A DNA stretch of 64,000 nt from a virus (Duplodnaviria > Caudoviricetes), in the IMG/VR virus record IMGVR_UViG_3300020187_001966. One strand, written 5' to 3'. The translations under genes were made by a program, and so were the position numbers. Below are positions 46 to 46,440 of the stretch, piece after piece. Positions within the stretch are counted from its first letter, which is position 1, and each line of letters begins with the position of its first letter. Below the pieces are notes generated by a model. That model had not been told where the DNA came from. It worked only from the letters and a program-made list of their open reading frames with translations, and did not search any database.

Positions 46-249
46 TTATCTCATCAATTGTGCTAAGACATAGCTCTGTTGGTCTATGATCTTTTCTATC
101 TGAACGTGCGTAAGGCCAACAGTAACTACATCTGTAATTACAAAATCTACCAAGTAGCCAACTGACAGTAAATAAGTCACGATACAGCAGAGTACGCTGA
201 CCAACACTAACAAGGTCGTCAAAGGGTATTTTAGTAAAGTCATATTCAC
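46..249 (-). CDS. Small membrane protein, hypothetical (67 aa)
   Basis: ORF track; long hydrophobic N-terminal stretch; fits the minus-strand gene tiling. Confidence 0.6.
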   Translation of the reverse strand: MNMTLLKYPLTTLLVLVSVLCCIVTYLLSVGYLVDFVITDVVTVGLTHVQIEKIIDQQSYVLAQLMR

Positions 250-263
250 TCCATTTTAAATCG

Positions 264-542
264 TCAGTCATTTAATGTCTTTCTGGAACACTGCATTGTA
301 CATATAGGAACAGGACTAGTTGTTGACCAACTGTCTTCAATATATTTTTCCCATAAGTCCATTATACTATAAGGATTGTTATTTGTCAAAAACAAAAGGT
401 CATAATCATCGCCTAATTTTTCACGTAGATAATCAATACTTTCACGATGTGTGGCTAGCCAACAGCATGGTAAAAACATTCCGTTTATTTCAATATGGTA
501 ATTAACGTCAGTCGTTTGACATTTTGGATCAATATTACTCAC
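264..542 (-). CDS. Stand-alone SPASM/twitch-like Fe-S domain (~92 aa; GTG start at 542 rather than the track's 587)
   Basis: KC...NGMFLPCCWL...ICTMQCS matches the C-terminal domain of 17773..18891 (GLLMPCCW...VCAQKCG); GTG overlaps the TAA of the upstream rSAM gene and follows AAAGGTGGA. Confidence 0.75.
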   Translation of the reverse strand: MSNIDPKCQTTDVNYHIEINGMFLPCCWLATHRESIDYLREKLGDDYDLLFLTNNNPYSIMDLWEKYIEDSWSTTSPVPICTMQCSRKTLND

Positions 543-1209
543 GATGTCCACCTTTCTCTGTAAACAACACCTCAAAATCTGTGCCACGATATGATGGTTC
601 TAGATGTGGATTTTCTTCAACAATAGGATATTTTACTCTAATTACATCAAAGCCTAGTTGTCTACTTTGGTCAATAATTTTAAGAATGTTGTTTTCGTTA
701 TAACTGAATACTAAAAGTTTTTGTACTACTAATGGTCTTGTTTTAGGTGGCATACTGACAAGTGTCTGAACTCCCAACTGTCTGCTCCGAGCATCGTTAT
801 TAACACGATACTGGTCGTCTTCTAATAGACCGTCAATACTAAACAATATTTGGTCCAGTGGTTGTAGTACTGCTCCTAACTGACGCCAAAAGTCAGCATC
901 TTTGTAACTTCCGTTTGTATGAATATAGATAGGCACATCAGTAACAGTTTTAATATAAGCGATAAACTCTATTAGATCAGGATAGTATATTGGATCTCCC
1001 CAATTACCACAAAATAGTATTGATTGGTATGATAAATCTTTAATAACTCCACGATATTGATGCCAATCAATTTGTCGTTGCTCTTTAATATCACGCCATA
1101 ATGTATTAATCGTAGGATTGCTCATTGTACGTACACACTCTGGACAAGACAGAGTGCATTTACTTGTCAGACCAAAATGTAAATAGCTAATATCTTTACT
1201 AAAGGGCAT
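535..1209 (-). CDS. Radical SAM core lacking its C-terminal SPASM domain (likely start ATG 1209)
   Basis: CTLSCPEC motif, CGNWGDP, HTNG, FSIDG, YRVN; paralogue of 17773..18891. Confidence 0.88.
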   Translation of the reverse strand: MPFSKDISYLHFGLTSKCTLSCPECVRTMSNPTINTLWRDIKEQRQIDWHQYRGVIKDLSYQSILFCGNWGDPIYYPDLIEFIAYIKTVTDVPIYIHTNGSYKDADFWRQLGAVLQPLDQILFSIDGLLEDDQYRVNNDARSRQLGVQTLVSMPPKTRPLVVQKLLVFSYNENNILKIIDQSRQLGFDVIRVKYPIVEENPHLEPSYRGTDFEVLFTEKGGHRE

Positions 1210-1756
1210 ACCAATAGGCATCCTGTACAGGGTCAACACTTAATTCATTTATATTAATATGTGCTGGTTGATCTATTATCCATTTAATGTAATCTGCGGC
1301 TGTATCAATCGCCATACATCGTCTATCAGGGTGTTTATGTTCATTATTACTAAGTGTACCAAAACTAATGTAGCTTACTTTGGGCATACGACTCCATACA
1401 CCTCCAATGCTAAGTGTATTACTGTAATCACGTAGTGCTTTCTTTTCAGCGTTGTATAACCAGGCCTTGCCGTTCTTAACACGGTCCGTGGTACTACCAA
1501 TGACTACTATATGTGCTAGTTTCTTGGCATCCTTTAGGCTCTTGTACACTGTATCTAGTAGCACAGTTTGTTGAAACTGCCATAGTGCGCTGTTAACTAT
1601 AATAACATCATGATTGAGTGCTTCAGCGGCAAATGCGTCTCTTCCTGATCTTTCTACCAAGTCATGTCCGGTACTTCTACTCATAAAAGTGGCATCTGGA
1701 TATAACTGGGATAACGATTGCGCTATCCCTTGTGTAGGATTACCTGATATTAGCAT
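1199..1756 (-). CDS. Short-chain dehydrogenase/reductase (SDR)-like protein
   Basis: N-terminal ISGNPTQGIA nucleotide-binding-like motif, IIVNS, IGS, catalytic YNAEK (YxxxK). Confidence 0.75.
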   Translation of the reverse strand: MLISGNPTQGIAQSLSQLYPDATFMSRSTGHDLVERSGRDAFAAEALNHDVIIVNSALWQFQQTVLLDTVYKSLKDAKKLAHIVVIGSTTDRVKNGKAWLYNAEKKALRDYSNTLSIGGVWSRMPKVSYISFGTLSNNEHKHPDRRCMAIDTAADYIKWIIDQPAHININELSVDPVQDAYWYAL

Positions 1757-2858
1757 TTATTATCTCCCATGCTTGTTTATTTACACTAGTAAAATCTGTT
1801 TTTTGATGTCGATCCATAATATTAATATAATCACGAGTTGTGGTTAACTGATTATCAATCGTAATGTCTGCTGTTAGTATGCGGTCTAACTCCGTGTTAC
1901 CAGTTACAAATTGTTCTCTAACTGATAATGGTAATTGATATATACTTAAATGTTTTGGAAACGTTAATTCACTAAACGAAACTTTTATATTGTAACGTTT
2001 AAGATAATCTTGTAATGTCCATAACTTATTAAAATTAAGTATACTTACTGTACAACTGGCGTAAAGATTAATGTCGGTTTCAGCAAAACGTCGAATGTTA
2101 CTGTCAATTGTATTCCAACTTATTCCAAACCTGGTGGTCTCTGCTAGCTCATGAGTGCCATCTAAACTAAATGATATAACACTGTTTGGAAAGTATTTTA
2201 ATTGTTGTATAACTTTTTCATCTGGGTATACACTACCGTTTGTTGTAATATTTAAAAATAGTTTATTAGGGGTCTGTACTTCTTGGTGTAGTTTATCTAT
2301 AAACCAACTTAAATGTTTAGCATAAAAAGGTTCGCCACCTTCTATTTTTATATGTCTGGCTTGACTTAAATCAGTATTACCCAACACCACTCGCATACGT
2401 TCTTGGTAATTACGGTAATTATTGGCTGGGTCATAATTAATACCAGCCGCATCTAACTCCGCCAACAAGCTGGAGTTATTCCATTTACTACTAGCACCAG
2501 GGTTACATATTTGGCATCTCATGTTACAGGTATAATCCAGTGCTATTTCTAAATCTTGTATAGTGGCTGGTTGGAATAAATTATGCTGTCCATAAAACTT
2601 ATTTGACCAAACTCTTCGACTTTCAGCACCACCTTGTTCTGCTAACTGACACATCTGACATCCACTGGGCCATTGCCCATGGTTAAGGTTACGTTTTATA
2701 TTATGATAAGGTGGTGTTTGATGTAACCCGTCTAAACTATCTATGTCAAATATAGTAGGCAAGTCTACAGGGTCTGAAAACTTACAACAAGGACGGACGG
2801 TGCCACCACTATCAACAACGCTAACGCCTACTTGGCTATGTACACAAAAATTAGTCAT
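1740..2858 (-). CDS. Radical SAM protein with N-terminal twitch domain
   Basis: FC...RPCC...CQMC N-terminal Cys set; CNMRCQIC; GGEP; TTNG; SLDG. Confidence 0.9.
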   Translation of the reverse strand: MTNFCVHSQVGVSVVDSGGTVRPCCKFSDPVDLPTIFDIDSLDGLHQTPPYHNIKRNLNHGQWPSGCQMCQLAEQGGAESRRVWSNKFYGQHNLFQPATIQDLEIALDYTCNMRCQICNPGASSKWNNSSLLAELDAAGINYDPANNYRNYQERMRVVLGNTDLSQARHIKIEGGEPFYAKHLSWFIDKLHQEVQTPNKLFLNITTNGSVYPDEKVIQQLKYFPNSVISFSLDGTHELAETTRFGISWNTIDSNIRRFAETDINLYASCTVSILNFNKLWTLQDYLKRYNIKVSFSELTFPKHLSIYQLPLSVREQFVTGNTELDRILTADITIDNQLTTTRDYINIMDRHQKTDFTSVNKQAWEIINANIR

Positions 2859-3979
2859 AATAATTTACTTAAATCTTGATTTTTTATCTGTTGTTTGTCT
2901 AGTATAAAATCTGTAACAGTTGTATGACTAAAACCAGTACCTATTCTATCATGCATACTTTGCAAGTATTGTTCAAATCTTTTAGCATTTTGTAACTTTG
3001 TATGTTGGTTATGGTATCTAGCATAAACTTCTTGTGCTCTTACTATATGTTTTCGATAATCGGTATCTAAGTTCTTTATATCAATTACACTGGGTATGGT
3101 GATATAACTTCCATGCCAACTAAATGACTTATCAGGTGCAACAGTTAACATTGTTTCATGCACCCATTCAATATAATCAGCTAGTCCTCTTATACTAAGT
3201 GCATTAGTAGTAGGTGCTAGTGTAATACTTTCGACTTCTGGTGTGGTTGCATACGTAATAAAATTAGTTTTAAATCTTTCCCAATCTAGTCCATACCTTG
3301 ACAACTCTGCATCAGTACCAAATGTTTCATTACTAATAGCAATATTCCAAGGTTTGCCACTGCCACGTATAGTTTTTAATAATCGTTCCATCATAGGTGC
3401 TTTTGTATTACAATTTGTACAGATTTCAAACTGCGCATCAACAGGCAATGTGTTTATATACTCTACCATTGGAGCGAAACGTTTACTAGCAGTTGGTTCA
3501 CCACCTAAAAAATTAAATACTATACTACCACTAAGTGTTGATACCCAACGTTTAAATGTTTCAAAGTCACGCTCAGTACCGTCATCACGTATAGGCACAC
3601 CTTCTTCTTGAGCTATTTGACTACTAGCATCTGCGGCACAGTATAAACAGCTCTGGTCACATATAGTATCAAGTGTTACGTCAATATAAGTTGTGTGTGG
3701 ATCACGAGTTACTGTACTAAAGTCTTGCCACGTATTTTGTTGTGAACGATAACTGGGTATGCCAGCGTTTTCACTTTCCCAACAGTGTGTACAATCTGGG
3801 TGTTGTTCACCAGACAGTGTGCTAGATCTTCTTTGCTGTATTTGAGGACTGTTATTAAAAAAATCTATGTCGTATTCATCAGGCATTGGGTATGCCTTGG
3901 ACCTACAACAGTTTCTTATTAATCTATTTGCAAAATCTATGTTTACATCAGTCCAGCTTTTGCTGCATGCTGTTTTCAT
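2855..3979 (-). CDS. Radical SAM protein with N-terminal twitch domain (likely start ATG 3979, MKTACSKSW)
   Basis: C...RNCC...CTHC; CDQSCLYC; GGEP; CTN; the track's 4012 start lies inside a terminator-like hairpin. Confidence 0.88.
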   Translation of the reverse strand: MKTACSKSWTDVNIDFANRLIRNCCRSKAYPMPDEYDIDFFNNSPQIQQRRSSTLSGEQHPDCTHCWESENAGIPSYRSQQNTWQDFSTVTRDPHTTYIDVTLDTICDQSCLYCAADASSQIAQEEGVPIRDDGTERDFETFKRWVSTLSGSIVFNFLGGEPTASKRFAPMVEYINTLPVDAQFEICTNCNTKAPMMERLLKTIRGSGKPWNIAISNETFGTDAELSRYGLDWERFKTNFITYATTPEVESITLAPTTNALSIRGLADYIEWVHETMLTVAPDKSFSWHGSYITIPSVIDIKNLDTDYRKHIVRAQEVYARYHNQHTKLQNAKRFEQYLQSMHDRIGTGFSHTTVTDFILDKQQIKNQDLSKLL

Positions 3980-3984
3980 AATAT

Positions 3985-3992
3985 TACTTATA
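3985..3992 (-). promoter_or_regulatory. Late-promoter-like TATAAGTA (1 mismatch to the T4-type TATAAATA)
   Basis: Lies between the hairpin and ATG 3979. Confidence 0.4.
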
Positions 3993-3997
3993 CTCGT

Positions 3998-4024
3998 GAA
4001 AACAGCCGCCATAACGGCGACTGT
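3998..4024 (-). terminator. Putative intrinsic terminator after the nitroreductase gene
   Basis: Minus strand ACAGTCGCC-GTTAT-GGCGGCTGT-TTTC: 9-bp GC-rich stem with one G-U pair and a short U tract, ~20 nt after the stop at 4043. Confidence 0.6.
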
Positions 4025-4042
4025 GTTCTAGTTCTTTAGCTG

Positions 4043-4675
4043 TTAAATGCGATTAACAGCAATATCTTCTTTTTTGTTTGTTGGAAACATAAATCCAGTT
4101 TCGTGATGTAAACGTCTGTTACGTGTTGAGTCTTTAATACCCACACCTTGTAACATTGCTGGACGGTTTTTAAGTCCTAGTACGTCACGAATGGCATCCA
4201 TTTTACCACACTGACAACAACCAGTACTATATCCAAGAATACTTGCTGTTAAGTTAATATATCCACCTGCAATACCAATTGCTGTCGATACATCTCTCTT
4301 AAATACTTCACGGTCAGCAGCATCTTTTTGCTCCCATCGTGCACGACTTTTATCTGTTAAGTCTTCAATTTCGTTTGGCTCAAATACAAATAAGACATTT
4401 GCTAGTACTTGACTGTTTGTACTCTCAATTTGGTTATTGTCTTTGTCATAAGTGTGTGTGCCTGTTGCCAAAGCATGTACTTGTTCAATAAGTGAACGAT
4501 CAGTAATGACGTGTAACTTATAAAAAGCAACATTTTGCTTACTTGGGCAGTTTGTTGCAGCATGTACTAGTGTATCAATATCAGCTTCAGGAATACTTTG
4601 ATCTAAATCAAAGTTTCTTTGACAATGTTGACTGCGTATAACTGCTTTTTTAATATCTACGGTTGTTAATTCCAT
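4043..4675 (-). CDS. Nitroreductase-family flavoprotein
   Basis: RSQHCQRNF...IPEADIDTLVHAATNCPSKQN (R-S-x-R...APS-x-N-like FMN motif); strong AGGAGG RBS. Confidence 0.85.
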   Translation of the reverse strand: MELTTVDIKKAVIRSQHCQRNFDLDQSIPEADIDTLVHAATNCPSKQNVAFYKLHVITDRSLIEQVHALATGTHTYDKDNNQIESTNSQVLANVLFVFEPNEIEDLTDKSRARWEQKDAADREVFKRDVSTAIGIAGGYINLTASILGYSTGCCQCGKMDAIRDVLGLKNRPAMLQGVGIKDSTRNRRLHHETGFMFPTNKKEDIAVNRI

Positions 4676-4702
4676 TGATGTTTTCCTCCTATACGATATA
4701 TG

Positions 4703-4710
4703 TATTTATA
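4703..4710 (-). promoter_or_regulatory. T4-type late promoter TATAAATA
   Basis: Exact motif in the 38-nt gap upstream of the nitroreductase RBS. Confidence 0.7.
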
Positions 4711-4713
4711 CAA

Positions 4714-5916
4714 TTAACCAATAAGTTTATTGTTATAAACATAATCAGCAATTCTTGGTAGTTTTTTCTCACCAGTTTTAAAATAAAGTTGATCTTGCAA
4801 ACGTACAATTGTTTTAAATAGTTCAGCGTCAGCAGTTTGTGGTGTTTGCATGTACTTTATAATAGGATTATCAGGGCCATGCAATTCAGTTAAAAAGCTC
4901 TTGACATTATCTGGTAAATTTGCTATATCTAAACCTGCAGGATAGTGTACAAATGTGGCATCAGTATGAGCTGAAATGCCCATGGCTTGTATTTGGTCTA
5001 CTAATTTGTTTAAGTCGTGAAACGTCTCACTGGCGTAGAATGCATGGTAAGCGGTACTGGTACACACCAAGTATACACCAAGTATATTGCTACTTGCACT
5101 GAGTATTTTAAACAAGTTATCAACAACCTGATCGTAATCGCCACCTTGCCTAAAATAATTAAACAGTTCATGTGTGCCATCCATACTAACTGTTAAGTCT
5201 ACTCCACCAAAGTGGTTCCACAACTCACTTAGTTTATAACTCTTAAACTCTATCATACTCATGTTTGTGTTGTATGCAATAGTAAGTTTACTAGTATCAA
5301 TGTCTGGCTCACTGATAAGTCTCTCTAAAAAGCGATAATGTCCTATATGATATAATGGTTCACCACCACTAAATGTAATCCTTTTAACACCCTGAATTAT
5401 ATTTTGTATAATGTCTTCCAAATGTTCAGCGGTTATTGTTTGTATTGGTGAGTCAGCAGGTCCAATATGATCAAAGCCTGCACGTAACAACATTTCATGT
5501 GTTTCAGTATTTTTCTTGCCTAGTTGTTCAAACTGACTATTACTATCTGCCATACAGTGTCTACAAAAATAATTACAAGTACGACTAAATTTAAGTTCTA
5601 AATCTAGTATACCTGTTGAAACTGGAGTAGTATAGTCTATTGAACTGTCGTCCCAGTGTTTGTTATTGAGACTTTTTTGTCTATAACTTTTTACACCGTT
5701 TTCTTCTTTGTATTGGCAGTCTTCACATCCAGCTGGAAACTCGCCATTAATTAAGCTATTGCGCACTGCTAGCATATTTGGATGATTAACTGCTTCGCTT
5801 GGCAGTGTATCACGCATACTAGCAATAGGCTGACGTTTAACTTTGTATCTAAAGCAAGGTGCGTATTCTCCTTGAAGAAAGTCTAAATGACTCCAAGCAT
5901 ACTTACATTTCAGCAT
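4714..5916 (-). CDS. Radical SAM protein with variant N-terminal twitch domain
   Basis: KCKYAW...APCFR...CEDC (single Cys in place of CC); CNYFCRHC; SGGEP; YNTN; SMDG. Confidence 0.88.
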   Translation of the reverse strand: MLKCKYAWSHLDFLQGEYAPCFRYKVKRQPIASMRDTLPSEAVNHPNMLAVRNSLINGEFPAGCEDCQYKEENGVKSYRQKSLNNKHWDDSSIDYTTPVSTGILDLELKFSRTCNYFCRHCMADSNSQFEQLGKKNTETHEMLLRAGFDHIGPADSPIQTITAEHLEDIIQNIIQGVKRITFSGGEPLYHIGHYRFLERLISEPDIDTSKLTIAYNTNMSMIEFKSYKLSELWNHFGGVDLTVSMDGTHELFNYFRQGGDYDQVVDNLFKILSASSNILGVYLVCTSTAYHAFYASETFHDLNKLVDQIQAMGISAHTDATFVHYPAGLDIANLPDNVKSFLTELHGPDNPIIKYMQTPQTADAELFKTIVRLQDQLYFKTGEKKLPRIADYVYNNKLIG

Positions 5917-7393: not shown

Positions 7394-8073
7394 ACAAGTA
7401 ATTCCTCAACTGTGCCTTCAAAGTTTATAAGTAAACCCATCTTCCATGGACCAACTAACTTTCCAGTACAGTGTAGGTTATTACTGTTAAAAACTACCAT
7501 ATTACCTGGACGCCAATCATATGCTGTGCCAGTTAACCCATGAAATAGTTCTGGTGTGTGGTTATTAAACTCTAAATAGTCACTATAAAACTTTTCGTCT
7601 ATTGGATCTTCAGTACAATCATATACTCTTGGATCTTCGTATGGTGCCATTGGTACTTTTTTATTACGATCAAAATTGTAGTTGTTGATATCTTTGCGTT
7701 TACCATACCAAGTTTGTCCAAACCCATTGTCAGTATACTGGTCAAACACCATGAAGTGTTGTGGTGGATCTGTTACTTCCAGATGTATTGGAATGTTTAC
7801 GTTAATCATTTGTGTGGGCTCATCACTATCAACGTGTAGACTGTACAAGTTGGTGTGCCGGTATATATTACCGCCACTGCCTTTATTTGGATTAAAATAC
7901 TTGCTTACTATTGGTCTTAATAAGTCCTCTAAGTGTCGCCAAGGATGATTAATTTTAATTACATTTGGATTGTTGGGTTTGTGTATCTGTAAATCAGGAT
8001 TATTGTCAAAGAAATCTTTAATCTCTCGACAGACTTCTAAAGGTATAGCATTTTCAAATACTGTGTGTTTCAT
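7390..8073 (-). CDS. 2OG-Fe(II) oxygenase-like protein
   Basis: LHVD (HxD)...NIPI...GNMVVFNSNNLHC (distal His) double-stranded beta-helix pattern. Confidence 0.65.
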   Translation of the reverse strand: MKHTVFENAIPLEVCREIKDFFDNNPDLQIHKPNNPNVIKINHPWRHLEDLLRPIVSKYFNPNKGSGGNIYRHTNLYSLHVDSDEPTQMINVNIPIHLEVTDPPQHFMVFDQYTDNGFGQTWYGKRKDINNYNFDRNKKVPMAPYEDPRVYDCTEDPIDEKFYSDYLEFNNHTPELFHGLTGTAYDWRPGNMVVFNSNNLHCTGKLVGPWKMGLLINFEGTVEELLV

Positions 8074-14853: not shown

Positions 14854-14896
14854 TGAATGTAATCCTTTATTTCTAATAATGTGTCAGTTTTTTGTG

Positions 14897-21752: not shown

Positions 21753-21780
21753 TCGGTATTCTCCTGTGGTGTTCTGTATA

Positions 21781-21809: not shown

Positions 21810-21812
21810 TAG

Positions 21813-30877: not shown

Positions 30878-30904
30878 ACTCTCGATAAACTTTAATTATC
30901 TGTC

Positions 30905-37138: not shown

Positions 37139-37165
37139 GGTAACCTCTTTAATTAAGTACTATGT

Positions 37166-39671: not shown

Positions 39672-41133
39672 AACATTTCCTATAATATTCTTCAAGTTCA
39701 GGAAACACGTCTACAAATTTCGTGTTTCGCCTGGCATCTATTGTGTCAATAAATTTTCTAAAGTTGGCCCGGTGTACTTTATTATCTTCATCTGAGCTAT
39801 AGTAACAAGAATCGACAACTCTTCCCATCTTCTCTGCTTCGTAATCATAAAACGCTCGGTTGTCTTGACCTGACGTAAGATTTTCCATCATAAAATTATA
39901 TTGGTCCCAGGCATATGGCATAACTAATTCCTTTGGGGGAGTTGCTAAACTTAAAAACGGAGGAAACGTGATAGGGCTAATATCCACGTGAACAGCACAC
40001 GGCTTATCGCCTCGTACAAAATTGTCTATTAAATTATTTTTCAAGAAAAACTCTGAGTACTGTGTGAATCTACCGTTATATCTGTTTTTAGATTTTTTAA
40101 CTTCTAATATTTTTTCTAGGAACTGACCATAGCTAGGTACACTTAATACACTATACGCTGACATTATTGTATTGTCAACTGTTGGATGTGTTTCTATTAG
40201 ATACATTAACCTATCCCACAACATATTAAAGTCTAGTCCACTACGAATGTATTCTGCTTGTTCGCCCCAACCGTCTAAACTAGTGTATAGTGTAATTTTC
40301 TTTACTAGGTTCTCTTGCTCATTCTTCTTGATAAATTCAATCAGTTTTTGCCATGCTTGCTCTGGAGCGTTTAAGTTAGTGTTAATACCTAGCTCAAGAT
40401 CTGGCATTGGGTGTTTTTCAATTTCATTTAGCAGTTTAAAAGTGTCTTTACTCATTAGCGGTTCACCGCCAGTAACTCTAAGAGTTTTTAAAGTTGTCCT
40501 GAGATCAGGCCACCATTTCCAAAATGCTTCAACATATGGATTATTTTGGTTGTGTGGTATTGGCAATTCGTTTATTGACTCTAAATATCCTAGACTATGG
40601 TAGTCCCAAGTAGGTTCTTTAGATTGAGCGTCAGTAAGCATAATAGATTCATTTTGTTGTTGTTCCTGTTGCCATTTACTGCTAAAGTGTGGACCACAGT
40701 ATGTACATTTTAAATTACATGCGTTACTAAAACTAACTTCTACGTATTGTGGAGTATGGTCATCTCCTGTACCGCTTTGTACAATTGTATCAAAACGATC
40801 TTCAAACAAGTTAGCACTTTTTAAATATCGATCGCTAACTGCTTCTTTATTACTATCTTCCATTTTATAACAAAAGTTACATGGGCTAGGACGTTCACCA
40901 TTTAACATAGCCTTACGTTGAGCTATTTTTTCACGACTATTATGAATTGCTTTATAATTTTGTGATATTTCTTCTAATGAAATTTTATGAGGCGCTGGAT
41001 GGTGACAACTGTGTGTCATACCGTTATGCAAATGCATAGTTACTTGATCCCATTTAGCTAAACAAAATCCACTTCCAACCTTGTTTAACTTGTCCTTCAT
41101 ATCTAATGCTCGTTGTAATTCATTTTCATTCAT
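39664..41133 (-). CDS. Radical SAM protein with variant N-terminal twitch domain
   Basis: FCLAKW...HSCHHP...CNFC; CNLKCTYC; TGGEP; NTN; SLDG. Confidence 0.9.
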   Translation of the reverse strand: MNENELQRALDMKDKLNKVGSGFCLAKWDQVTMHLHNGMTHSCHHPAPHKISLEEISQNYKAIHNSREKIAQRKAMLNGERPSPCNFCYKMEDSNKEAVSDRYLKSANLFEDRFDTIVQSGTGDDHTPQYVEVSFSNACNLKCTYCGPHFSSKWQQEQQQNESIMLTDAQSKEPTWDYHSLGYLESINELPIPHNQNNPYVEAFWKWWPDLRTTLKTLRVTGGEPLMSKDTFKLLNEIEKHPMPDLELGINTNLNAPEQAWQKLIEFIKKNEQENLVKKITLYTSLDGWGEQAEYIRSGLDFNMLWDRLMYLIETHPTVDNTIMSAYSVLSVPSYGQFLEKILEVKKSKNRYNGRFTQYSEFFLKNNLIDNFVRGDKPCAVHVDISPITFPPFLSLATPPKELVMPYAWDQYNFMMENLTSGQDNRAFYDYEAEKMGRVVDSCYYSSDEDNKVHRANFRKFIDTIDARRNTKFVDVFPELEEYYRKCYE

Positions 41134-42341
41134 TGTTGTAAGGCTTTCTGCCGCATAGACGAAAGGTTACCGAGACTAACATTTGGTCTATCAAAAATAG
41201 GATCTTTAAGATGATCTAAAAATGTTTGATGATCTGGATGCATGTCTTTCCAAATACATTTTTCATTATACTCTTCAGGGTTCCACGTTCCCCAATCACT
41301 AACCATGCTAAAACAAATTTGATGATGGTTCGGATACATTTCTGTCACTAATTCAATATACTGTTTCATTTCTTTATAGTTGTCATATTGTACAACAAAA
41401 TCATATATAATCCTAAAGTTTGGAAACTCTGCTCTTTTTCCATCTAAAAAAGTACAGTTACTAAGTAGAAGATCCCAGTCGCCATTTAACCGAGTTTTAT
41501 TTTCATACGTGTCTTTAGTGGCTGCATCAAAACTAATTCTACAGTCAGTTAAATTATTATGTATATTACTAATACGATTCCATAATTTAGGAGTATACAT
41601 AACACCATTTGTTTGCATAGAGATAGATAAGTTTGGAAAATCTTTGCCGTTTAAATTGTAAAGCATATCCCTATAAATCTTACTAGCCCATGGATCACCA
41701 CTACCAGTTACAAATATGCCAAAGTGTCTATCTGTAGGAGTAGTTAAAAACATCTCAACCATTTTATCATTGATTGCTTTTCTTTTTTCATACAGTGGTC
41801 CACTAGTGTATAGTAATTTAGTAGTTCTACAGCTTGGACATTTTAAATTACAACTTTCATCATTACTAAAATTAATATACGTTGGCATTGCTGTACTTTT
41901 TAAGTCTTTTGTTTTAAGAGCAACTAATTCATGCTGATGTACTGTATGTTTTTCATCTAGAATATCTTGAATGTTTGGTAGATTGTTACTTTGTATTACA
42001 GGACAAAAACTAGCTTGACAATAGTTCCATTCGCCGTTAAATATTTGCTTACGTAACTCTTGAGCTCTAGGCCCATTCCATATTTCTTCTAAAGTATCTT
42101 CTAATACATTACCAATTGGATAAGGTAACCAACTTGGACAACACATCCAGCATCTACCATGCATATCTACTTCTAGCCATGTATATAGTTTATTACAGTA
42201 TTTTCCTTTTAGATTATGTTTGCCATAATCTAAACCTTGAGTATCTTTAATCCACACATTTCCAAATAGTGGATGATGCATATGTCCAGACGCTTTAGAC
42301 GACCATGGTTGATGATGTGGTGATGTCATTTTTTGTTCCAA
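41130..42341 (-). CDS. Radical SAM protein with variant N-terminal Fe-S domain (alternative start ATG 42329)
   Basis: YC...CWMCCP...CQASFCP; CNLKCPSC; GSGDP; QTNG; SFDA. Confidence 0.88.
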   Translation of the reverse strand: MEQKMTSPHHQPWSSKASGHMHHPLFGNVWIKDTQGLDYGKHNLKGKYCNKLYTWLEVDMHGRCWMCCPSWLPYPIGNVLEDTLEEIWNGPRAQELRKQIFNGEWNYCQASFCPVIQSNNLPNIQDILDEKHTVHQHELVALKTKDLKSTAMPTYINFSNDESCNLKCPSCRTTKLLYTSGPLYEKRKAINDKMVEMFLTTPTDRHFGIFVTGSGDPWASKIYRDMLYNLNGKDFPNLSISMQTNGVMYTPKLWNRISNIHNNLTDCRISFDAATKDTYENKTRLNGDWDLLLSNCTFLDGKRAEFPNFRIIYDFVVQYDNYKEMKQYIELVTEMYPNHHQICFSMVSDWGTWNPEEYNEKCIWKDMHPDHQTFLDHLKDPIFDRPNVSLGNLSSMRQKALQQ

Positions 42342-42344
42342 ATA

Positions 42345-43325
42345 TTATTCTATAGTATCTTGTACTTGATCTTCACGTACTTGTGGTCCTAGTCTACTAG
42401 GATTGCGATATACTGTTTTCCAAAAACGTGATCCTGGTACACCAATGTCTGCTAGTTCAAGATCAAGTGTGCTACGTAACTGATCACCTAGCTCAACTGT
42501 TTTTGCTTTTAGTTTATCCATATCCCAACTATAGCCAGTACGTGGACATAGCTCATCACCGTCAGCAAACTGTGGTGCTAGTTCATCTTCAAAGTATTTT
42601 GTTAACCAATCAAAGTCACGTACATTTTTCCAATCCCATTCTTTTCTAGTAACATTAGTCATGTATGCGCCTAGTCTAGCACCATATATTGCCCAAAGTC
42701 CGTTGGTAGTATCCTCACCAACAGTCATCCATACCATAAGACGTCTATAATTTTCTCTATGAATACGTTTTATTGCGCTAGGATCAACAACGTCACCATT
42801 TTCTAATCCCATCTTAACACCTTCACGAAAGCCAGCACGCCATGCTTGTAGTGGAGATCCATTATTGTGTACCCAACTATACCAGTTATTCATTTGGATG
42901 TATTGAATGTTCCAACAAAAGTCTACTTGCGCTCTTTTGTCTGTGGCAGGTGCCGCTTCATGTGTACGCATACGATTAACAACGTCAACTGGCCACATTT
43001 TAATACCACCGTTGCCGTACACTAATCCGTTAATTTTATTTTTAGCAGCAAAACTAATAACATGTTTCTCTCCAATTTTATCCATGTCTAACTCGACATT
43101 GAAAAAATCTTCAGTAACAATATTATCAGCATCTACTGTAATAAAACGTTCTGTTTCGCTCATTGCGGCGGCGGCTTTGTGTGCGGCATCACTACCCCAC
43201 ACACCATGGCTTCGTTTGGCCCATGGACATTTGTCTAACAGGTCTGCATAGTTTTCATCAGCATTTGGTTCGTCGTAGCTAATGTAAACTATGTCAAAAT
43301 CGTTAATACTTACCAGGTTTGACAT
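42345..43325 (-). CDS. GT-A-like glycosyltransferase
   Basis: ISYDEPNADENY...AHKAAA...VDADN (DxD); GNGG; AWRAGFREG; paralogue of 21042..21752. Confidence 0.68.
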   Translation of the reverse strand: MSNLVSINDFDIVYISYDEPNADENYADLLDKCPWAKRSHGVWGSDAAHKAAAAMSETERFITVDADNIVTEDFFNVELDMDKIGEKHVISFAAKNKINGLVYGNGGIKMWPVDVVNRMRTHEAAPATDKRAQVDFCWNIQYIQMNNWYSWVHNNGSPLQAWRAGFREGVKMGLENGDVVDPSAIKRIHRENYRRLMVWMTVGEDTTNGLWAIYGARLGAYMTNVTRKEWDWKNVRDFDWLTKYFEDELAPQFADGDELCPRTGYSWDMDKLKAKTVELGDQLRSTLDLELADIGVPGSRFWKTVYRNPSRLGPQVREDQVQDTIE

Positions 43326-44307
43326 ATTCTAATTCCTCATATTTGAATGACACATTTTTTCCTTCTTCACCAATTAGTAACTTGGACGTTAAGAGTTCAG
43401 CATCTGTGTGTATATTAAACTCTTTGTACTCGCCCATTTCACTAAATGGTATTACGATACTTTCTTTTAAATCAAAAGGCGTATCTCCAGTAATATAAAT
43501 TTTCATATCGCTGTAGATTTTTGCCTCATGTGGGTCTTTAAAATTACTTTTAAATATCCAACCATTAGTACTATTGCTGATAGTAAATGTTGCTTCATCA
43601 TCAGTACTATAAATTTCTTTGTGATTTCGTCGGCTATTCTTTCTTTTAATATACTCTACTGTAGTATACTTAGTCTTAGTTTTTAACCCATAACTTTTAA
43701 AAATTCTACGAGTTAGTATATCAATATTGTTCAATCCAATAACGTTTGTGTATTCACTAAGATCATAAAGCATATATCCTTTGTTGATAAGATCAATAGG
43801 ATCAAGTTTAATAGTATGTATAAGGCGTAACGGGTTATTCTTTTCAGTGATGTAAAAGTATAGTACACTGTTATTTGTGTTTAGCGCCTTACTAAATTTT
43901 TGATTGAATCTTTTGCCTGTCATACGATATAGTGTATCACCACTAATGTTAATTTCTAACTTCATACTTTCAATATAGCGTATAATGTTAATTTCCATAT
44001 CAACTGATAAAGATGTTTCAGCAATTTTACTAAGCTGGTCTTCATGACTTTTTATCACTAATGCTTCAGATTTAGACATAATAAAAGTACCATTACTAGT
44101 ATCATTTACTACATATTTCTTTGGATTTAAATGTCCAATAAGAATTTCTGCAGCGGTGTTATCCTCTGTTAGTAAGTATGGATTCTTCGATTCCCTGTAC
44201 TTGCTTGATACATTTATGATCTCTCCAGACCATTCATCGTAATAAACATAGTACTTAGGAAGCGGTTTTTCTCCGACTACTGATATCAATATTGGTTCTG
44301 TATTCAT
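43303..44307 (-). CDS. Hypothetical protein (334 aa)
   Basis: Long ORF within the gene tiling; no motif recognised. Confidence 0.75.
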   Translation of the reverse strand: MNTEPILISVVGEKPLPKYYVYYDEWSGEIINVSSKYRESKNPYLLTEDNTAAEILIGHLNPKKYVVNDTSNGTFIMSKSEALVIKSHEDQLSKIAETSLSVDMEINIIRYIESMKLEINISGDTLYRMTGKRFNQKFSKALNTNNSVLYFYITEKNNPLRLIHTIKLDPIDLINKGYMLYDLSEYTNVIGLNNIDILTRRIFKSYGLKTKTKYTTVEYIKRKNSRRNHKEIYSTDDEATFTISNSTNGWIFKSNFKDPHEAKIYSDMKIYITGDTPFDLKESIVIPFSEMGEYKEFNIHTDAELLTSKLLIGEEGKNVSFKYEELEYVKPGKY

Positions 44308-45130
44308 TAATTATTTCTTCTGTGATAAAATTTTCGTCTCTGTAGTGTACTATTCCTGATGAAATAATACTATTTTCAATTATTAGTCGGTTGTTTTCTG
44401 GAAACCAATAATTAAGTATGACAGTCCAATTGTCTGGAATGTCGTTGTTCCATAGGTGTTGACTGTGAGCGTGTAAATCATATAGATTGTTAAGCGACAT
44501 ACTAACTTCATGTTTAACATCAAGTAAGTGAGTAACAATATTACACAACACATTTTTGTTAAACGATTGTGGTTTTTTATCGTTCATTAGTTGTGTATAA
44601 ACATCACGCCAGTTTTGAAACACTGGATCTGCCATCTTAAACCATTCGATTGCTAATTTGCTATCTTTCTTAAAGTAGATAAAATTACTGTAAAGTGTGG
44701 GAAATTTATAATGATTCTCAAACTCAAAAAGTTGTCTTCTATTCAACGGTTGATTTCTAAATGATCTTGATATATTAGGCATAGCAATATCATAGACTTC
44801 AAGATTTTCCCATAGTTGATTAATATCTGTGTTTAAGAATAATGTATCATAATCTACGTAAATTGTTTCGTCATATGGTGTTGCTTCTCGTAGTTGCCAA
44901 ATATTTGATCCGTGGAACCCGTCTTTGTATGCTGTATTACCAAATGGTAACTCAATAATGTAATCAAATACGTTTTCATATCCACTGATTAAATCTTTTT
45001 CTATGTCGGCAACAATCAAACAAATACTTGCTTCTGGATCACATGTTTTAATACTTAACGCAGTGGTGTACGCATATTTAATTTGATCTTGATCAGTATC
45101 AATACCAAGTAGTAGAAATCCTTTACTCAT
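44255..45130 (-). CDS. GT8-like glycosyltransferase
   Basis: Y..A..LSIK, ATPYDETIYVDYDTLF (DxD), SNFIYFKK. Confidence 0.7.
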   Translation of the reverse strand: MSKGFLLLGIDTDQDQIKYAYTTALSIKTCDPEASICLIVADIEKDLISGYENVFDYIIELPFGNTAYKDGFHGSNIWQLREATPYDETIYVDYDTLFLNTDINQLWENLEVYDIAMPNISRSFRNQPLNRRQLFEFENHYKFPTLYSNFIYFKKDSKLAIEWFKMADPVFQNWRDVYTQLMNDKKPQSFNKNVLCNIVTHLLDVKHEVSMSLNNLYDLHAHSQHLWNNDIPDNWTVILNYWFPENNRLIIENSIISSGIVHYRDENFITEEIINEYRTNIDISSRRKTAS

Positions 45131-46038
45131 TGATATTCTCCATCAGTCAGTTTACTAATAATAGTATTAGTGTGTCTAGCTATCGACATCTTGTTCATCA
45201 AGTGTAAGTTGGTATCAGTTTGTCGAGTTAAAATATTCTTCCAGGCTTCATTTCTGTTATGACTTAACATAACGTAGTCATTAACATCTTTAACTTCAAT
45301 GATATCGTCTTTTTGGTCCATGTTAATTAATGGCATGCCACCAAAATCATTCATAAAGTTATTTTCATTAAAGCCATTCATCACATGGTTTGCTATACTC
45401 ACGCAAAAGTCTGTTCTAAATAGACCTGGTGGGAATTGGTATAGTAAGTGATAATAATCCCAGTTGTCTTTAACATGTTCCCATGTATCAAAAAATATGC
45501 GGCTCTCTTCACTTTGGTCAAAGTATACTACTGTACTCCACCAGTGATGAATTCCTGCTTCATTAAGTGTTTGTTCATTTAGGTATGGTGGTTGATGCTC
45601 CATATAACGAGCATATTTGTGCATTGCTATTGGCACGTCAGTTTCAAAGATATGATCATAAAAGTCGTTCATTATAAAGTAATCAGTATCAATTAGCATT
45701 GTTTTTTCAAACGGTGTTAAATTAATAACATTATGCTTGTTACTATTACTAAACTGTGTGCTAAACTCTGTCCACGGACTATCAAAATGTCTACGTGGGT
45801 TTGATTGGTGTTCTACATCTTGTATCACAACATGGTCAAAACAACTCTCGTGAAACTCTACAGGTATAGAATCTTTAAGATACCCATACGACCCATTATC
45901 AGTGATGAGACAAGTTTTGTTATTTTTCATATTACGCTTTACATATGCGGCTGCAATATGCGCAAACTTAATATAATCCATCTTTTCGTTGTTGTATGCG
46001 AACATACAAATACCAGATTCTTCTTTATTTTCTGTCAT
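45127..46038 (-). CDS. GT8-like glycosyltransferase
   Basis: LTPFEKTMLIDTDY (DxD), WSTVVYFD, RTDF, HLMNK; paralogue of 44255..45130. Confidence 0.72.
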   Translation of the reverse strand: MTENKEESGICMFAYNNEKMDYIKFAHIAAAYVKRNMKNNKTCLITDNGSYGYLKDSIPVEFHESCFDHVVIQDVEHQSNPRRHFDSPWTEFSTQFSNSNKHNVINLTPFEKTMLIDTDYFIMNDFYDHIFETDVPIAMHKYARYMEHQPPYLNEQTLNEAGIHHWWSTVVYFDQSEESRIFFDTWEHVKDNWDYYHLLYQFPPGLFRTDFCVSIANHVMNGFNENNFMNDFGGMPLINMDQKDDIIEVKDVNDYVMLSHNRNEAWKNILTRQTDTNLHLMNKMSIARHTNTIISKLTDGEYQ

Positions 46039-46385
46039 TACCAGTCCATAATTTTCTTAATATTTCTAGACTTCTTAAGTTTATCCATTTGTACTTTGTA
46101 CTCGTTAACACCTTCAGTATACGCACCAACTAACAGATCTAAAAAGTCTGATAGGTTAGCGATTTCAATTGGGTTTTCTTTAGTGTCTAGTATAACACTA
46201 CTAGTTTTCCCTACTGAAATAAGGGCTTGTACAAAGCTAATTGTTTGTGGATTTGCTGTAAATGAACCACTATTATGATGAACTAGCTGTAATGTTTGCA
46301 TACGTGCGATTACATTTTTCTTTTGATTACTAAGTGTTGTGCGGTAATTACCGAACTCCAGCGCCTTTTCAAGCCTATCATCCAT
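46038..46385 (-). CDS. Hypothetical protein (115 aa)
   Basis: AGGAG RBS; first gene after the promoter at 46413..46440. Confidence 0.8.
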   Translation of the reverse strand: MDDRLEKALEFGNYRTTLSNQKKNVIARMQTLQLVHHNSGSFTANPQTISFVQALISVGKTSSVILDTKENPIEIANLSDFLDLLVGAYTEGVNEYKVQMDKLKKSRNIKKIMDW

Positions 46386-46412
46386 ATGATGTTCTCCTAT
46401 AAGTTAACTACT

Positions 46413-46440
46413 ATTATAATTATTTATGAGGGAATGTCAA
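46413..46440 (-). promoter_or_regulatory. Sigma70 consensus promoter TTGACA-16-TATAAT with embedded CATAAATA
   Basis: -35 at 46440..46435, -10 at 46418..46413, late-like box at 46428..46421, all in the 65-nt intergenic gap. Confidence 0.8.

Follow-up and report, generated by a model that had tools for sequence, protein, structure and literature searches.

Enzyme sets comparable in part to the one considered here have been described in pelagimyophages, whose host-recognition clusters carry GT8s, UDP-glucose dehydrogenase and radical-SAM cassettes, and for which O-chain modification was favored (Zaragoza-Solas 2020; PMC7029224). The present locus lies in a window of 64,000 nucleotides, with every gene on the minus strand, from an uncultured marine jumbo phage of the Rak2/Atu_ph07 structural type, and it has a six-gene core in common with predatory Bdellovibrio-like bacteria. 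Two Bdellovibrionota genomes were examined; in both, GT2 glycosyltransferases surround the homologous core, near which are an FAD amine oxidase and up to 10 radical SAM enzymes (rSAMs), with a weak PMT_2 (GT-C) match in one locus and a QueC-like gene in the other. On one of these chromosomes, G011, it stands beside a 623-aa GT2 protein (Glyco_transf_21/GT2 matches) that we read as synthase-like. Of 151 Bdellovibrionota genomes, 31 have a match to the N-terminal-twitch rSAM family NF033640 above its cut-off, versus 0 of 14 model genomes.

The phage locus was initially annotated as a cluster of about 46 kb; the block is real, but its size was understated. It spans about 55 kb (contig 42,836-97,540) and encodes about 63 soluble enzymes; the window carries the first 46 kb, and the cluster ends at contig 97,540, 8.3 kb past the window start. 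The genes are co-oriented, mostly with overlapping stop and start codons as first noted, 42 of 49 junctions overlapping or abutting, and no membrane segment was found in any cluster protein. Immediately beyond the window are an AMP-binding fragment and a gene for an Asp/Asn hydroxylase-like protein, and a thymidylate-synthase-family gene is located 4 kb past the cluster end. The enzyme block is phage DNA, neither host DNA nor a chimera, because contigs from independent runs and assemblies bridge its junction with the structural genes at 46.4 kb and the order from baseplate to cluster is kept in distant relatives: three related IMG/VR records (G003, G004 and G005) contain both the baseplate wedge and the cluster, and in each of them the cluster comes downstream. 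The synteny comparison proposed in the initial annotation shows a cluster that adjoins the tail module in relatives and varies strongly around a conserved core.

The claimed junction with baseplate and fiber genes is borne out. Ahead of the cluster come a gp25-like baseplate wedge gene (63404-63769; Pfam GPW_gp25, 37.7 bits), preceded by the late-promoter motif TATAAATA (63775-63782); a 1179-aa gp6-like wedge subunit (59865-63404; phrog_10646, 870 bits) with 38-41% identity to Atu_ph07 and Rak2-like jumbo phages; a giant virion structural protein of 3589 aa (49099-59868; phrog_10938, 791 bits), whose counterparts in G004 and G003 have 4572-4581 aa; and, at 46451-49121 and syntenic with G003 and G004, a phrog_11259 protein, a fiber-like 305-aa protein and a 365-aa protein without assigned function (PHROG matches). 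The further claim that the cluster continues directly from this module fares less well, as conserved consensus sigma70 promoters heading the cluster, the core and the best-kept rSAM argue against a simple late tail operon. A perfect TTGACA-16-TATAAT (46413-46440, minus strand, like the next two) occupies the gap before the first cluster gene, and the homologous gap in G003 and G004 holds TTGACA plus TATAAT-like hexamers. An 11/12 match (21781-21809) lies in the 149-bp gap before the core; G004 has a similar promoter at the corresponding position, and its upstream genes there run in the opposite direction. A perfect match (361-389) precedes rSAM-370, and the equivalent sites in G003 and G004 again carry the perfect consensus. 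These predicted promoters point to expression from early infection, with host RNA polymerase probably starting transcription; a few genes may also have T4-type late promoters.

The CxxxCxxC motif occurs in 18 minus-strand ORFs, against about 0.15 expected by chance (a rough estimate from cysteine frequency). All 18 have Pfam or NCBIfam radical-SAM support, with PF04055 at or near cut-off in 16. Where 17 intact genes had been counted, 16 are whole; the ORF at 535-1239 is the N-terminal part of a frameshift-split paralog of core rSAM2, whose halves (535-1239 and 264-587) cover residues 18-225 and 278-360 of rSAM2 (372 aa) in alignment, and the eighteenth (2-271) is truncated by the start of the window but whole in the contig. 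By type, 11 are NF033640 members (161-413 bits for ten, 61 bits for one), two are B12-dependent methylase-like and five are others. The rSAM scores against NCBIfam equivalogs are all far below cut-offs, and no cluster enzyme has a characterized ortholog.

Defined over 42 close viral, 38 far viral and 25 bacterial loci, the core comprises two GT-A-like transferases, a class I methyltransferase and three rSAMs; it recurs in two phage clades and in Bdellovibrionota, and the remainder of the block is variable. The most conserved gene encodes rSAM-370 (5' part at 1-271, the rest beyond the window; contig 88950-90062), which is 370 aa when whole (PF04055, 56.5 bits), with 87% identity in G003/G004 and 59-65% in Bdellovibrionota. 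Second in the lineage is the 467-aa N-terminal-twitch rSAM (15562-16965; NF033640, 413 bits), which shares 82-84% identity in G003/G004 and 51-62% in 25 Bdellovibrionota loci and has more than 2,800 homologs, the best 120 at 77-94% identity. These two rSAMs are 82-87% identical between phages with a baseplate wedge only 33% identical. The third, rSAM2 (17773-18891; 372 aa; PF04055, 37.6 bits), has a C-terminal PCCW...C..C cluster and is 65-67% identical in G003/G004 and 42-47% in Bdellovibrionota.

One core transferase (42345-43325; 326 aa) is 41-44% identical to Bdellovibrionota genes, and its Atlas neighbors include a cluster auto-named "Glycosyltransferase family 2 protein." Its 236-aa paralog (21042-21752), which keeps the DxD motif and lies near the N-terminal-twitch ortholog in phage and bacterial loci, yields a model (pLDDT 85) matching SunS, RmlT, WrtF and PBCV-1 A64R in Foldseek (TM 0.35-0.47) and GT-A enzymes in VIA (Z 11.9-9). 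A profile search of PDB sequences gave no match, the similarity being at fold level only, in a fold class that also includes nucleotidyltransferases. The 356-aa core methyltransferase (19972-21042) has five N-terminal repeats of about 17 aa and a C-terminal class I SAM-MTase domain; a Pfam search found no family, and its model (pLDDT 93; Coq5, NodS and RebM at E 1e-8, TM 0.6-0.68) predicts a fold nearest those of small-molecule and sugar methyltransferases. Beside the core are a 75-aa ORF without assigned function (19758-19985) and a small 305-aa rSAM (18848-19765; PF04055, 41 bits) grouped as a paralog of rSAM-370. The ORF is 72-79% identical to its counterparts in G003 and G004; of the 42 close viral loci, 31 have it, and all far viral and bacterial loci lack it.

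The first cluster gene encodes 115 aa without assigned function (46038-46385; 33-36% identity, same place in G003 and G004). It adjoins two paralogous GT8-like glycosyltransferases of 303 and 291 aa (44255-46038), in which alignment shows a DxD motif and whose profile matches glycogenin (E 7e-4); three tandem N-terminal-twitch rSAMs of 403, 489 and 441 aa (NF033640, 61, 304 and 367 bits) occupy 38370-42341. In the sugar block (28978-37138), Pfam recognizes an SDR epimerase/dehydratase, an AhpC-type redoxin, a TylF-like O-methyltransferase, UDP-glucose dehydrogenase, a cupin, a DegT-like protein, an NDP-hexose C-methyltransferase-like protein and a weak Stf0-like P-loop protein, alongside four proteins without assigned function; the dehydrogenase (263 aa) and the DegT-like protein (202 aa) are truncated. 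Next to it lie two 345-aa proteins without assigned function (26910-28981), of which one (26910-27947) aligns with NF033640 over the C-terminal half only and has no CxxxCxxC, a 463-aa N-terminal-twitch rSAM (25522-26913; NF033640, 225 bits), a 708-aa class B, methylase-like B12-binding rSAM (23403-25529; Pfam B12-binding 32.1 bits, Radical_SAM 53.2 bits), whose top NCBIfam matches, under cut-off, are PhpK- and RiPP-type C/P-methyltransferases, and a NodU/CmcH-type carbamoyltransferase (21902-23473; Carbam_trans_C 173 bits, Carbam_trans_N 123 bits).

Within 9927-17776, three PP-loop ATPases (16955-17776, 14897-15562 and 9927-10664), with weak QueC, NAD-synthase and PP-loop matches and a fourth counterpart outside the window, are interleaved with rSAMs, among them two N-terminal-twitch enzymes (13486-14853 and 10610-11689, from paralog groups) and a small one (12609-13529); a PLP-like 310-aa protein is at 11686-12618. 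The variable shell (1740-9193) contains four N-terminal-twitch rSAMs matching NF033640 (8054-9193, 4714-5916, 2855-4012 and 1740-2858), a B12-rSAM (5903-7393), a protein without assigned function (7390-8073) and a nitroreductase (4043-4675) with a late-type TATAAATA at 4703-4710; the motif precedes both nitroreductase genes. An SDR-like 185-aa protein (1199-1756) was recognized from YxxxK and glycine motifs in its sequence. Much of the initial inventory holds: the carbamoyltransferase, the three PP-loop ATPases (SGGxDS motifs), the nucleotide-sugar enzymes (UDP-glucose dehydrogenase, SDR epimerase and cupin) and the three non-radical methyltransferases (TylF-like, 130 bits; TylC3-like NDP-hexose C-methyltransferase, 83 bits; and the 356-aa class I fold). 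Its four glycosyltransferase-like genes, two GT8-like and two GT-A-like with DxD motifs, are supported at fold or weak level. One of its two PLP enzymes is the truncated DegT-like protein and the second is weak (E 0.006), an SGNH protein (E 0.26) and an in-window sulfotransferase (E 0.03) were not confirmed, and in place of two oxygenase-like proteins we found the nitroreductase, the cupin and the AhpC-type redoxin.

We think it somewhat more probable than otherwise that the block is a cytoplasmic, early-expressed pathway that builds and radically edits sugars, and the initial proposal of a dedicated, uncharacterized, glycan-type tailoring pathway encoded by a phage is supported. Nucleotide-sugar enzymes (UDP-glucose dehydrogenase, SDR epimerase/dehydratase, DegT-like protein, cupin, C- and O-methyltransferases) would make activated uronic, amino and methylated sugars, which four GT-A-type transferases with DxD motifs would place on an acceptor. 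The 18 rSAMs would then edit unactivated C-H positions by epimerization, oxidation, deoxygenation, C-methylation or C-C bond formation, and PP-loop ATPases might amidate carboxylates while carbamoyl-, methyl- and probable sulfotransferases cap hydroxyls. Sugar substrate, reaction types, step order and acceptor we infer from what is directly visible, namely gene families, folds, paralogy, synteny, conservation and promoter motifs. We favor sugars because of the sugar-nucleotide and tailoring set (TylF, TylC3-like, DegT, UDP-glucose dehydrogenase, NodU-type carbamoyltransferase), the DxD motifs in GT-A and GT8 folds, the likeness of the core methyltransferase to NodS, RebM and Coq5, and the GT2 surroundings of the core in two Bdellovibrionota genomes. 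Further support comes from the paralog groups, the recurrence of the core and of NF033640, the lack of transmembrane proteins, the promoters, and core rSAMs so much better kept than the wedge. Against this reading stand the want of characterized orthologs, the truncated "sugar" proteins, GT-A similarity at the level of a fold shared with nucleotidyltransferases, and the fact that no nucleotidyltransferase or sugar kinase was identified within the cluster; the rSAM, PP-loop, nitroreductase and hydroxylase sets fit RiPP chemistry too.

Since all the enzymes are soluble, the acceptor has to be accessible from the cytoplasm, and the phage particle proteins encoded next door and a host envelope glycan are about equally likely. 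Virion decoration, the reading of the initial annotation and a sub-case of the sugar pathway, would put a glycan on tail-fiber, baseplate or capsid proteins, altering adsorption or shielding the particle. It is a tentative possibility. Virions assemble in the cytoplasm, and the GT-A-like fold neighbors include PBCV-1 A64R (major-capsid glycosylation), STIV A197, Mimivirus R655/R699 and SunS (a peptide S-glycosyltransferase); the order from gp25, gp6-like wedge, giant virion protein and fiber-like gene to cluster also fits, although adjacency alone is weak evidence. TATAAATA before both nitroreductase genes agrees with late use, but the conserved sigma70 promoters argue for early expression, Bdellovibrionota keep a homologous core in cells without a virion, and no glycosylation-site motif or carrier was identified. 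Those early-type promoters favor instead a remodeling of the host surface, in which lipid-linked O-antigen, capsule or glycoprotein precursors would be re-tailored at the cytoplasmic face, changing the receptor and excluding competing phages, a role already suggested for the glycosyltransferases of the pelagimyophage clusters. The pelagimyophage clusters, the hypervariable shell, which fits a surface arms race, and the G011 GT2 neighbor with the weak PMT_2-type match, pointing to an envelope glycan in cells, agree with this. It is nonetheless doubtful, as membrane proteins of any kind are missing from the phage cluster, as are an initiating transferase, a flippase and a polymerase, and host-specific glycans fail to explain extreme core conservation across phages with very different structural proteins.

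Early promoters, soluble enzymes and no evident acceptor gene would also suit a free small molecule resembling an aminoglycoside, nucleoside or cofactor, produced during infection as a poison or a means of manipulating host metabolism or competitors; natural-product sugar pathways have a similar tailoring set (TylF, TylC3-like, DegT, carbamoyltransferase, class B rSAM), and phages and predatory bacteria, which both kill bacteria, have the core in common. We consider this unlikely: no exporter, resistance gene or scaffold-forming enzyme (cyclitol synthase, NRPS/PKS, nucleoside-forming enzyme) was recognized, and the presence of four glycosyltransferase-like genes speaks for a polymer or conjugate. 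Sugar-free, RiPP-like protein or peptide modification, with rSAMs, B12-rSAMs, PP-loop ATPases, nitroreductase-fold dehydrogenases and the Asp/Asn hydroxylase-like protein acting on a peptide or a structural protein and the conserved 75-aa ORF serving as substrate or helper, appears quite improbable. SagB-type azoline dehydrogenases have the nitroreductase fold found in the cluster, many weak NCBIfam matches are to peptide maturases, and the hydroxylase-like gene and AMP-binding fragment lie close by. However, the 75-aa ORF is absent from the far viral and bacterial core and does not look like a Cys-rich or repeated core peptide, the bacterial loci examined hold no precursor-like small ORF, Pfam found no RRE/PqqD, YcaO or leader peptidase in the cluster, and GT-A-like genes are always part of the core. 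Hypermodification of phage DNA with sugars or 7-deazapurine-type groups is very unlikely. Early-type promoters would suit a replication-time function, the PP-loop ATPases have weak QueC C-terminal similarity, a thymidylate-synthase-family gene is nearby, and phages are known to glycosylate hydroxymethylated bases, as Pyle et al. reportedly describe. Across the contig, however, QueC stays under cut-off everywhere and TGT/DpdA has no Pfam match; no hydroxymethylase, TET/JBP or DNA-GT family was recognized in the cluster; and the same core occurs in GT2-rich loci of bacterial chromosomes. To our knowledge, 18 rSAMs is far above the number in any known DNA-modification pathway.

Immune evasion or host recognition as the purpose of the sugar pathway is speculation. 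We read the six-gene core as an invariant chemistry, around which the remainder of the block would form a fast-changing tailoring shell.

The radical SAM (rSAM)-rich island described by the initial annotation is real, subject to small corrections, and its reading as a virion-decoration pathway is borne out in part. The window corresponds to positions 25,221-89,220 (reversed) of a 150,961-bp IMG/VR viral contig whose CheckV completeness of 41% implies a phage genome of about 370 kb. GC content is even across the window (33-38%), and the minus strand carries every notable open reading frame (ORF). At the right end lies a baseplate module with a gp25-like protein (Pfam, 37.7 bits), a gp6-like wedge of 1179 aa (phrog_10646, 870 bits; 38-41% identity to the wedges of Agrobacterium phage Atu_ph07 and Rak2-like jumbo phages) and, by PHROG matches, a phrog_11259 protein and a fiber-like 305-aa protein. 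A virion protein of 3589 aa (phrog_10938) occupies 49099-59868 on the minus strand; its counterparts in the related IMG/VR phage records G004 and G003 have 4572-4581 aa, with identity of just 25-30% over ~530 residues.

That the cluster might be host DNA or an assembly chimera can be ruled out, as independent contigs, from a study that is not the likely source, span the boundary at 46.4 kb without differences, and marine copies and relatives agree. At least 17 marine metagenome runs, drawn from about 11 studies, contain the stretch 12001-22000 in near-identical form. One DNA contig showed a 6.4-kb "joint" that was set aside, as one of its sides has only 22 letters. The whole 34-54 kb stretch is also present in two runs filed as metatranscriptomes, and we rejected these contigs as proof of transcription or its timing because their flat depth resembles that of the DNA run; a third RNA run yielded nothing.

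Eighteen ORFs carry CxxxCxxC, the motif for the SAM-cleaving 4Fe-4S cluster, in the partial TIM-barrel domain of the radical SAM superfamily; PF04055 scores above its cut-off for most, and NF033640 covers the remainder. The earlier count of 17 rSAM genes stands, but not all are intact, as one is split into two ORFs, and an 18th, truncated at the window start, is complete in the contig. The two ORFs of the split gene (535-1239 and 264-587, minus strand) overlap in different frames and align to residues 18-225 and 278-360 of a 372-aa rSAM2 paralogue, which argues for a single gene broken by frameshift, pseudogenization or assembly error. Its C-terminal half (264-587) bears a PCCW...C..C auxiliary-cluster motif. 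All-against-all BLAST sorts the 18 into 11 N-terminal-twitch rSAMs, 3 small rSAMs, 2 of the "rSAM2" type and 2 B12-binding rSAMs. The latter pair (5903-7393 and 23403-25529) matches PF02310 at 34.5 and 32.1 bits (cut-off, 32.1) and PF04055 at 72.5 and 53.2 bits, and the order of domains, an N-terminal cobalamin-binding domain and then the rSAM domain, fits that of class B rSAM enzymes, making both putative methylases.

The twitch family dominates the cluster. Nine of its 11 paralogues score 197-413 bits against NF033640 (N_Twi_rSAM), for which membership requires a whole-protein score of 170 bits; the other two, at 161 and 61 bits, are by this rule relatives and not members. In the 467-aa member (N_Twi-467, 15562-16965), the N-terminal auxiliary cysteines C7, C25/26, C89 and C92 precede CxxxCxxC; C7, C89 and C92 are invariant and C25/C26 nearly invariant in the alignment of all 11. 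Pfam SPASM matches fall at residues ~7-109, with CxxxCxxC following at 108-164, the layout of an N-terminal twitch-type cluster. NF033640 is a naming model only, and our literature search turned up no member with a known substrate or reaction. A 345-aa ORF at 26910-27947 (minus strand) aligns only to model positions 187-397 and, lacking CxxxCxxC, resembles either a relic without a cluster or an accessory paralogue of the family.

Much of the enzyme complement claimed alongside the rSAMs was also recovered: three PP-loop ATPases, a carbamoyltransferase (173 bits), three non-radical methyltransferases (a TylF-like protein, 130 bits; a C-methyltransferase, Methyltransf_14, 83 bits; and a 356-aa protein of class I fold) and, as nucleotide-sugar enzymes, a UDP-glucose dehydrogenase and an SDR epimerase, with a cupin and a DegT-like protein (57 bits) also present. 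The four glycosyltransferase (GT)-like genes hold at the level of fold. Relaxed Pfam searches gave no adequate support for the SGNH protein and the in-window sulfotransferase, and only weak hints for ten unknown ORFs. The DegT-like protein (202 aa; 32472-33080, minus strand) and the UDP-glucose dehydrogenase (263 aa; 34259-35050, minus strand) are both much below typical family length; the former is probably a functional short form, since its length is kept in G003 and G004 (200-202 aa). The genes are co-oriented as described, with overlap or abutment at 42 of 49 junctions. The cluster runs 8.3 kb past the window start, to contig position 97,540, and this extension adds a second nitroreductase, an Asp/Asn-hydroxylase-like protein, an AMP-binding fragment, sulfotransferase-like proteins and a fourth PP-loop ATPase. 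At position 97,540 the cluster gives way to a convergent operon, which encodes a 10-transmembrane protein and a thymidylate-synthase-family protein (334 bits) at contig positions 99553-101004 and 101789-102676.

Comparison with G003 and G004 reveals a conserved core within a variable shell. Structural proteins of the contig are 25-52% identical to those of the two relatives (33% for the wedge); the corresponding values are 87% for rSAM-370 (1-271, running past the window start), 82-84% for N_Twi-467, 72-79% for a 75-aa ORF (19758-19985), 65-67% for rSAM2 (372 aa, 17773-18891), 59% for the 356-aa methyltransferase (19972-21042) and 46-49% for a 236-aa GT-A-like protein (21042-21752). The core proteins and the 75-aa ORF are the best-kept proteins common to the three records, whereas most other cluster genes find no counterpart or only paralogue-level matches, in agreement with the expectation that the cluster varies between relatives. 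The genes that recur across 42 close viral, 38 far viral and 25 bacterial loci are N_Twi-467, rSAM2 and rSAM-370, together with the methyltransferase domain and either one or two genes of GT-A-like type; the 75-aa ORF is restricted to the close viral group. The predicted linkage to the tail/baseplate module is likewise kept: each of the three large IMG/VR relatives with a wedge gene has 10-22 rSAM genes 25-30 kb downstream of it, oriented alike. Clustered homologues of N_Twi-467 number more than 2800; the best 120, at 77-94% identity, come from marine metagenomes, including Tara, on contigs of up to 353 kb. Members of the far viral group (41-45% identity; also ~360-kb genomes by CheckV) have 6-11 rSAMs per fragment. 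Megablast with 25 kb of the window gave no DNA-level match to GenBank phages, and tblastn with three cluster rSAMs gave at best 21-25% matches (Vibrio phages K566/K567, Ralstonia phage RsoM2USA and one marine SAG virus); as judged by these searches, the core is carried by no isolate phage.

Structure models helped to classify the core proteins that lack rSAM motifs. The 236-aa protein (pLDDT 85) matches GT-A enzymes over its first 150 residues (Z 9-11.9), with B4GALNT1, a Leptospira GT, SpsA, SunS, WrtF and PBCV-1 A64R as fold neighbors, and the D-x-D of its family is kept in seven of eight homologues. The model thus combines a nucleotide-diphospho-sugar transferase fold with a DxD metal site, as in GT-A enzymes, and sugar transfer is predicted; matches to nucleotidyltransferases, which share the fold class, were also found. 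At the sequence level, a profile search of the PDB found nothing for this family. The GT8-like pair (303 and 291 aa; 44255-46038) consists of paralogues with invariant D117 and D119 (DxD) and a glycogenin profile match (E 7e-4). For the core methyltransferase, the conserved C-terminal 195 of 356 aa give a class I SAM methyltransferase model (pLDDT 93), nearest to the small-molecule and sugar methyltransferases Coq5, NodS and RebM (E ~1e-8, TM 0.6-0.68); this domain had no PDB-sequence match by profile search, and no Pfam family was found among 18 homologues. On its N-terminal side (19972-21042, minus strand) are five ~17-aa repeats (LRRAVIDQDLSSIFRL-like), absent from the far viral homologues (~200 aa) and most bacterial ones.

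The core is also cellular. Relatives of N_Twi-467 (51-62% identity) occur in 25 prokaryotic loci, every one from Bdellovibrionota and some on complete chromosomes (2.9 and 1.56 Mb); the scan used one genome per species and detects only near relatives sharing exact 8-residue words with the query, so phyla beyond Bdellovibrionota are not excluded. The neighboring genes belong to the same core families (two GT-A-like genes, the methyltransferase, rSAM-370 and rSAM2), joined by N_Twi-455-like and PLP-like 300-aa genes, and the smallest version consists of two GT-A-like genes, the methyltransferase and three rSAMs. In two genomes the core has GT2 glycosyltransferases and an FAD amine oxidase around it, in loci with up to ten rSAMs; one of the two adds a weak PMT_2-type GT-C match and the other a QueC-like gene. 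Two Bdellovibrionota genomes (loci L126:5808-9956 and L127:3906-8121) have a MoxR-type AAA ATPase, a DUF58 protein and a ~620-aa protein immediately adjacent to the rSAM core. Of 151 Bdellovibrionota genomes sampled, 31 have NF033640 matches above cut-off, as many as 11 in a single genome; 14 model genomes have none. The bacterial loci differ from the phage cluster in having GT2 glycosyltransferases, one of 623 aa, and in lacking the 75-aa ORF and the GT8-like pair, while the phage version is larger and entirely soluble. A quick maximum-likelihood tree places the viral clade of the window (99% support) inside a Bdellovibrionota grade (85-88% support), with the far viral group separate; the long outgroup branches are compatible with transfer in either direction.

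Promoter motifs bear on when the cluster would be read. The T4-type late promoter TATAAATA is rarer in the window than expected (4 versus 14); in the window and the contig it precedes the gp25 gene as well as the first gene of the block and both nitroreductase genes, lying 24-28 nt ahead of each nitroreductase paralogue (window 4703-4710 and contig 90058-90065). Upstream of gp25 in G003 and G004 (loci L096 and L087), GGTAAATA stands in place of TATAAATA, so the late-promoter motif varies within the lineage. Sigma70-type promoters stand at three places: a perfect TTGACA-16-TATAAT at 46413-46440, in the gap ahead of the first cluster gene; an 11/12 match at 21781-21809, ahead of the core; and a perfect match at 361-389, ahead of rSAM-370. 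At these places the relatives retain the hexamers within differing flanks. G003 and G004 combine TTGACA with TATAAT or TATACT ahead of the first cluster gene, the promoter of the core GT-A gene in G004 consists of TTGACA and TATACT, and rSAM-370 is preceded by a perfect consensus in both. The genes upstream of the core lie on the opposite strand in G004, making the core its own transcription unit there. We infer from these motifs that host sigma70 polymerase would read the cluster from an early stage of infection and that some genes would be read more strongly late.

Large hypervariable islands in the structural region of marine T4-type phages are known from the host-recognition cluster (HRC) of pelagimyophages and cyanomyophages (mean, 44.6 kb), bounded by VrlC and gp14 and with tail fibers inside (Zaragoza-Solas et al. 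2020, mSystems, PMC7029224). That study notes radical-SAM cassettes in HRCs, neither counts nor analyzes the rSAMs, and defines no core and no Bdellovibrionota link. The window island is hypervariable and adjoins baseplate and fiber-like genes, but VrlC and gp14 were not identified; it instead lies behind the baseplate wedge and giant protein, carries sigma70 promoters of its own and ends at the convergent nonstructural operon. HRC phages infect SAR11 or cyanobacteria, whereas the window phage is of ~370 kb (estimated), with a wedge nearest those of Atu_ph07 and Rak2-like phages. Glycosylation of capsid and tail tube has been described in mycobacteriophages (Freeman et al. 2023, as cited in PMC12619734). 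The Moraphages are a different lineage, and rSAM enzymes are never mentioned for them in what PMC12619734 reports. Our searches of the literature on jumbo and huge phages, the twitch rSAM family and Bdellovibrio rSAMs found no description of the cluster. Phage glycan and host-recognition islands are already known; what is new is an rSAM-dominated version, with a six-gene core common to predatory bacteria and its own early-type promoters.

Sugar chemistry is the most likely activity of the cluster, and four lines of evidence converge on it: the gene set itself, with nucleotide-sugar enzymes, four GT-A-type transferases and C-, O- and carbamoyl-transferases; the sugar-type fold neighbors of the core methyltransferase; the fact that the core rSAMs are always accompanied by GT-A-like genes; and the GT2-rich surroundings of the core in cells. 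The rSAMs would edit unactivated positions of sugars, and the PP-loop ATPases may amidate carboxylates such as those of uronic acids. In its enzymes the cluster resembles natural-product and Nod-factor sugar tailoring (TylF, TylC3, DegT/EryC1, NodS, NodU, NodH), given the TylF (130 bits), Methyltransf_14 (83), DegT (57) and carbamoyltransferase (173) matches, the NodS-like fold and the B12-rSAMs (compare the class B methylases GenK and Fom3). Unlike those sets, the cluster contains no recognized scaffold-forming enzyme, all its equivalog scores are far under cut-offs, and its number of rSAMs is far above that of any such pathway we know of. RiPP-like chemistry, a free metabolite or DNA modification is less likely. 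For a RiPP, no RRE, YcaO or peptidase Pfam match was found in the cluster; small precursors can escape ORF calling, and the 75-aa ORF, alone among the small ORFs in being conserved, does not occur in the far viral and bacterial core versions. Other small ORFs, of the phage and of Bdellovibrionota locus L125, were rejected as precursors, as they look membrane-type or unrelated. As to the 7-deazaguanine pathway of DNA modification, QueC (PF06508) reached at best 17 bits (cut-off, 22) over the C-terminal 50 residues only, and TGT/DpdA (PF01702) had no match in the 151-kb contig, ~41% of the genome.

Evidence on the acceptor points two ways. A Kyte-Doolittle scan found no credible transmembrane segment in any ORF of contig 42,836-97,540, so the pathway would be cytoplasmic and without its own flippase, polymerase or exporter; nor does this region encode the membrane proteins (initiating transferase, flippase/transporter, polymerase) of a Wzx/Wzy- or ABC-dependent O-antigen or capsule locus. 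This solubility, together with conserved adjacency to baseplate and fiber genes, favors virion proteins. The cluster resembles virus-encoded virion glycosylation such as that of PBCV-1 in its predicted viral GT-A-type transferases, A64R being among the fold neighbors. In such systems, GT-A-type transferases work in the cytoplasm on structural proteins. To our knowledge, PBCV-1- and mycobacteriophage-type systems comprise a few glycosyltransferases and methyltransferases, and no rSAM enzymes. The early promoters and the cellular context of the core favor host lipid-linked envelope glycans, the target also proposed for pelagimyophage HRC glycosyltransferases (Zaragoza-Solas et al., PMC7029224).

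A fuller scheme, speculative and in its entirety rather unlikely, would make the N_Twi rSAMs and their two partner rSAMs a new carbohydrate-editing system, in which radical chemistry converts, step by step, a simple sugar attached by a GT-A enzyme into a lineage-specific, hypermodified decoration. The core would be common to giant phages and predatory Bdellovibrionota because both need the resulting structure to attack or occupy Gram-negative cells, and the shell, with up to ~15 further rSAMs, would diversify the decoration in an arms race. If the favored reading of sugar chemistry is right, a widespread marine phage lineage gives ~15% of an estimated 370-kb genome to uncharacterized radical sugar chemistry. 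The most conserved genes of this lineage are enzymes of unknown reaction rather than structural or replication proteins. Eleven paralogues of one rSAM family within one operon set amount to a natural experiment in substrate diversification, and the core in Bdellovibrionota may offer a genetic handle, if some culturable strain has it. The identity of the acceptor would tell whether ocean phages glyco-engineer themselves or their hosts.
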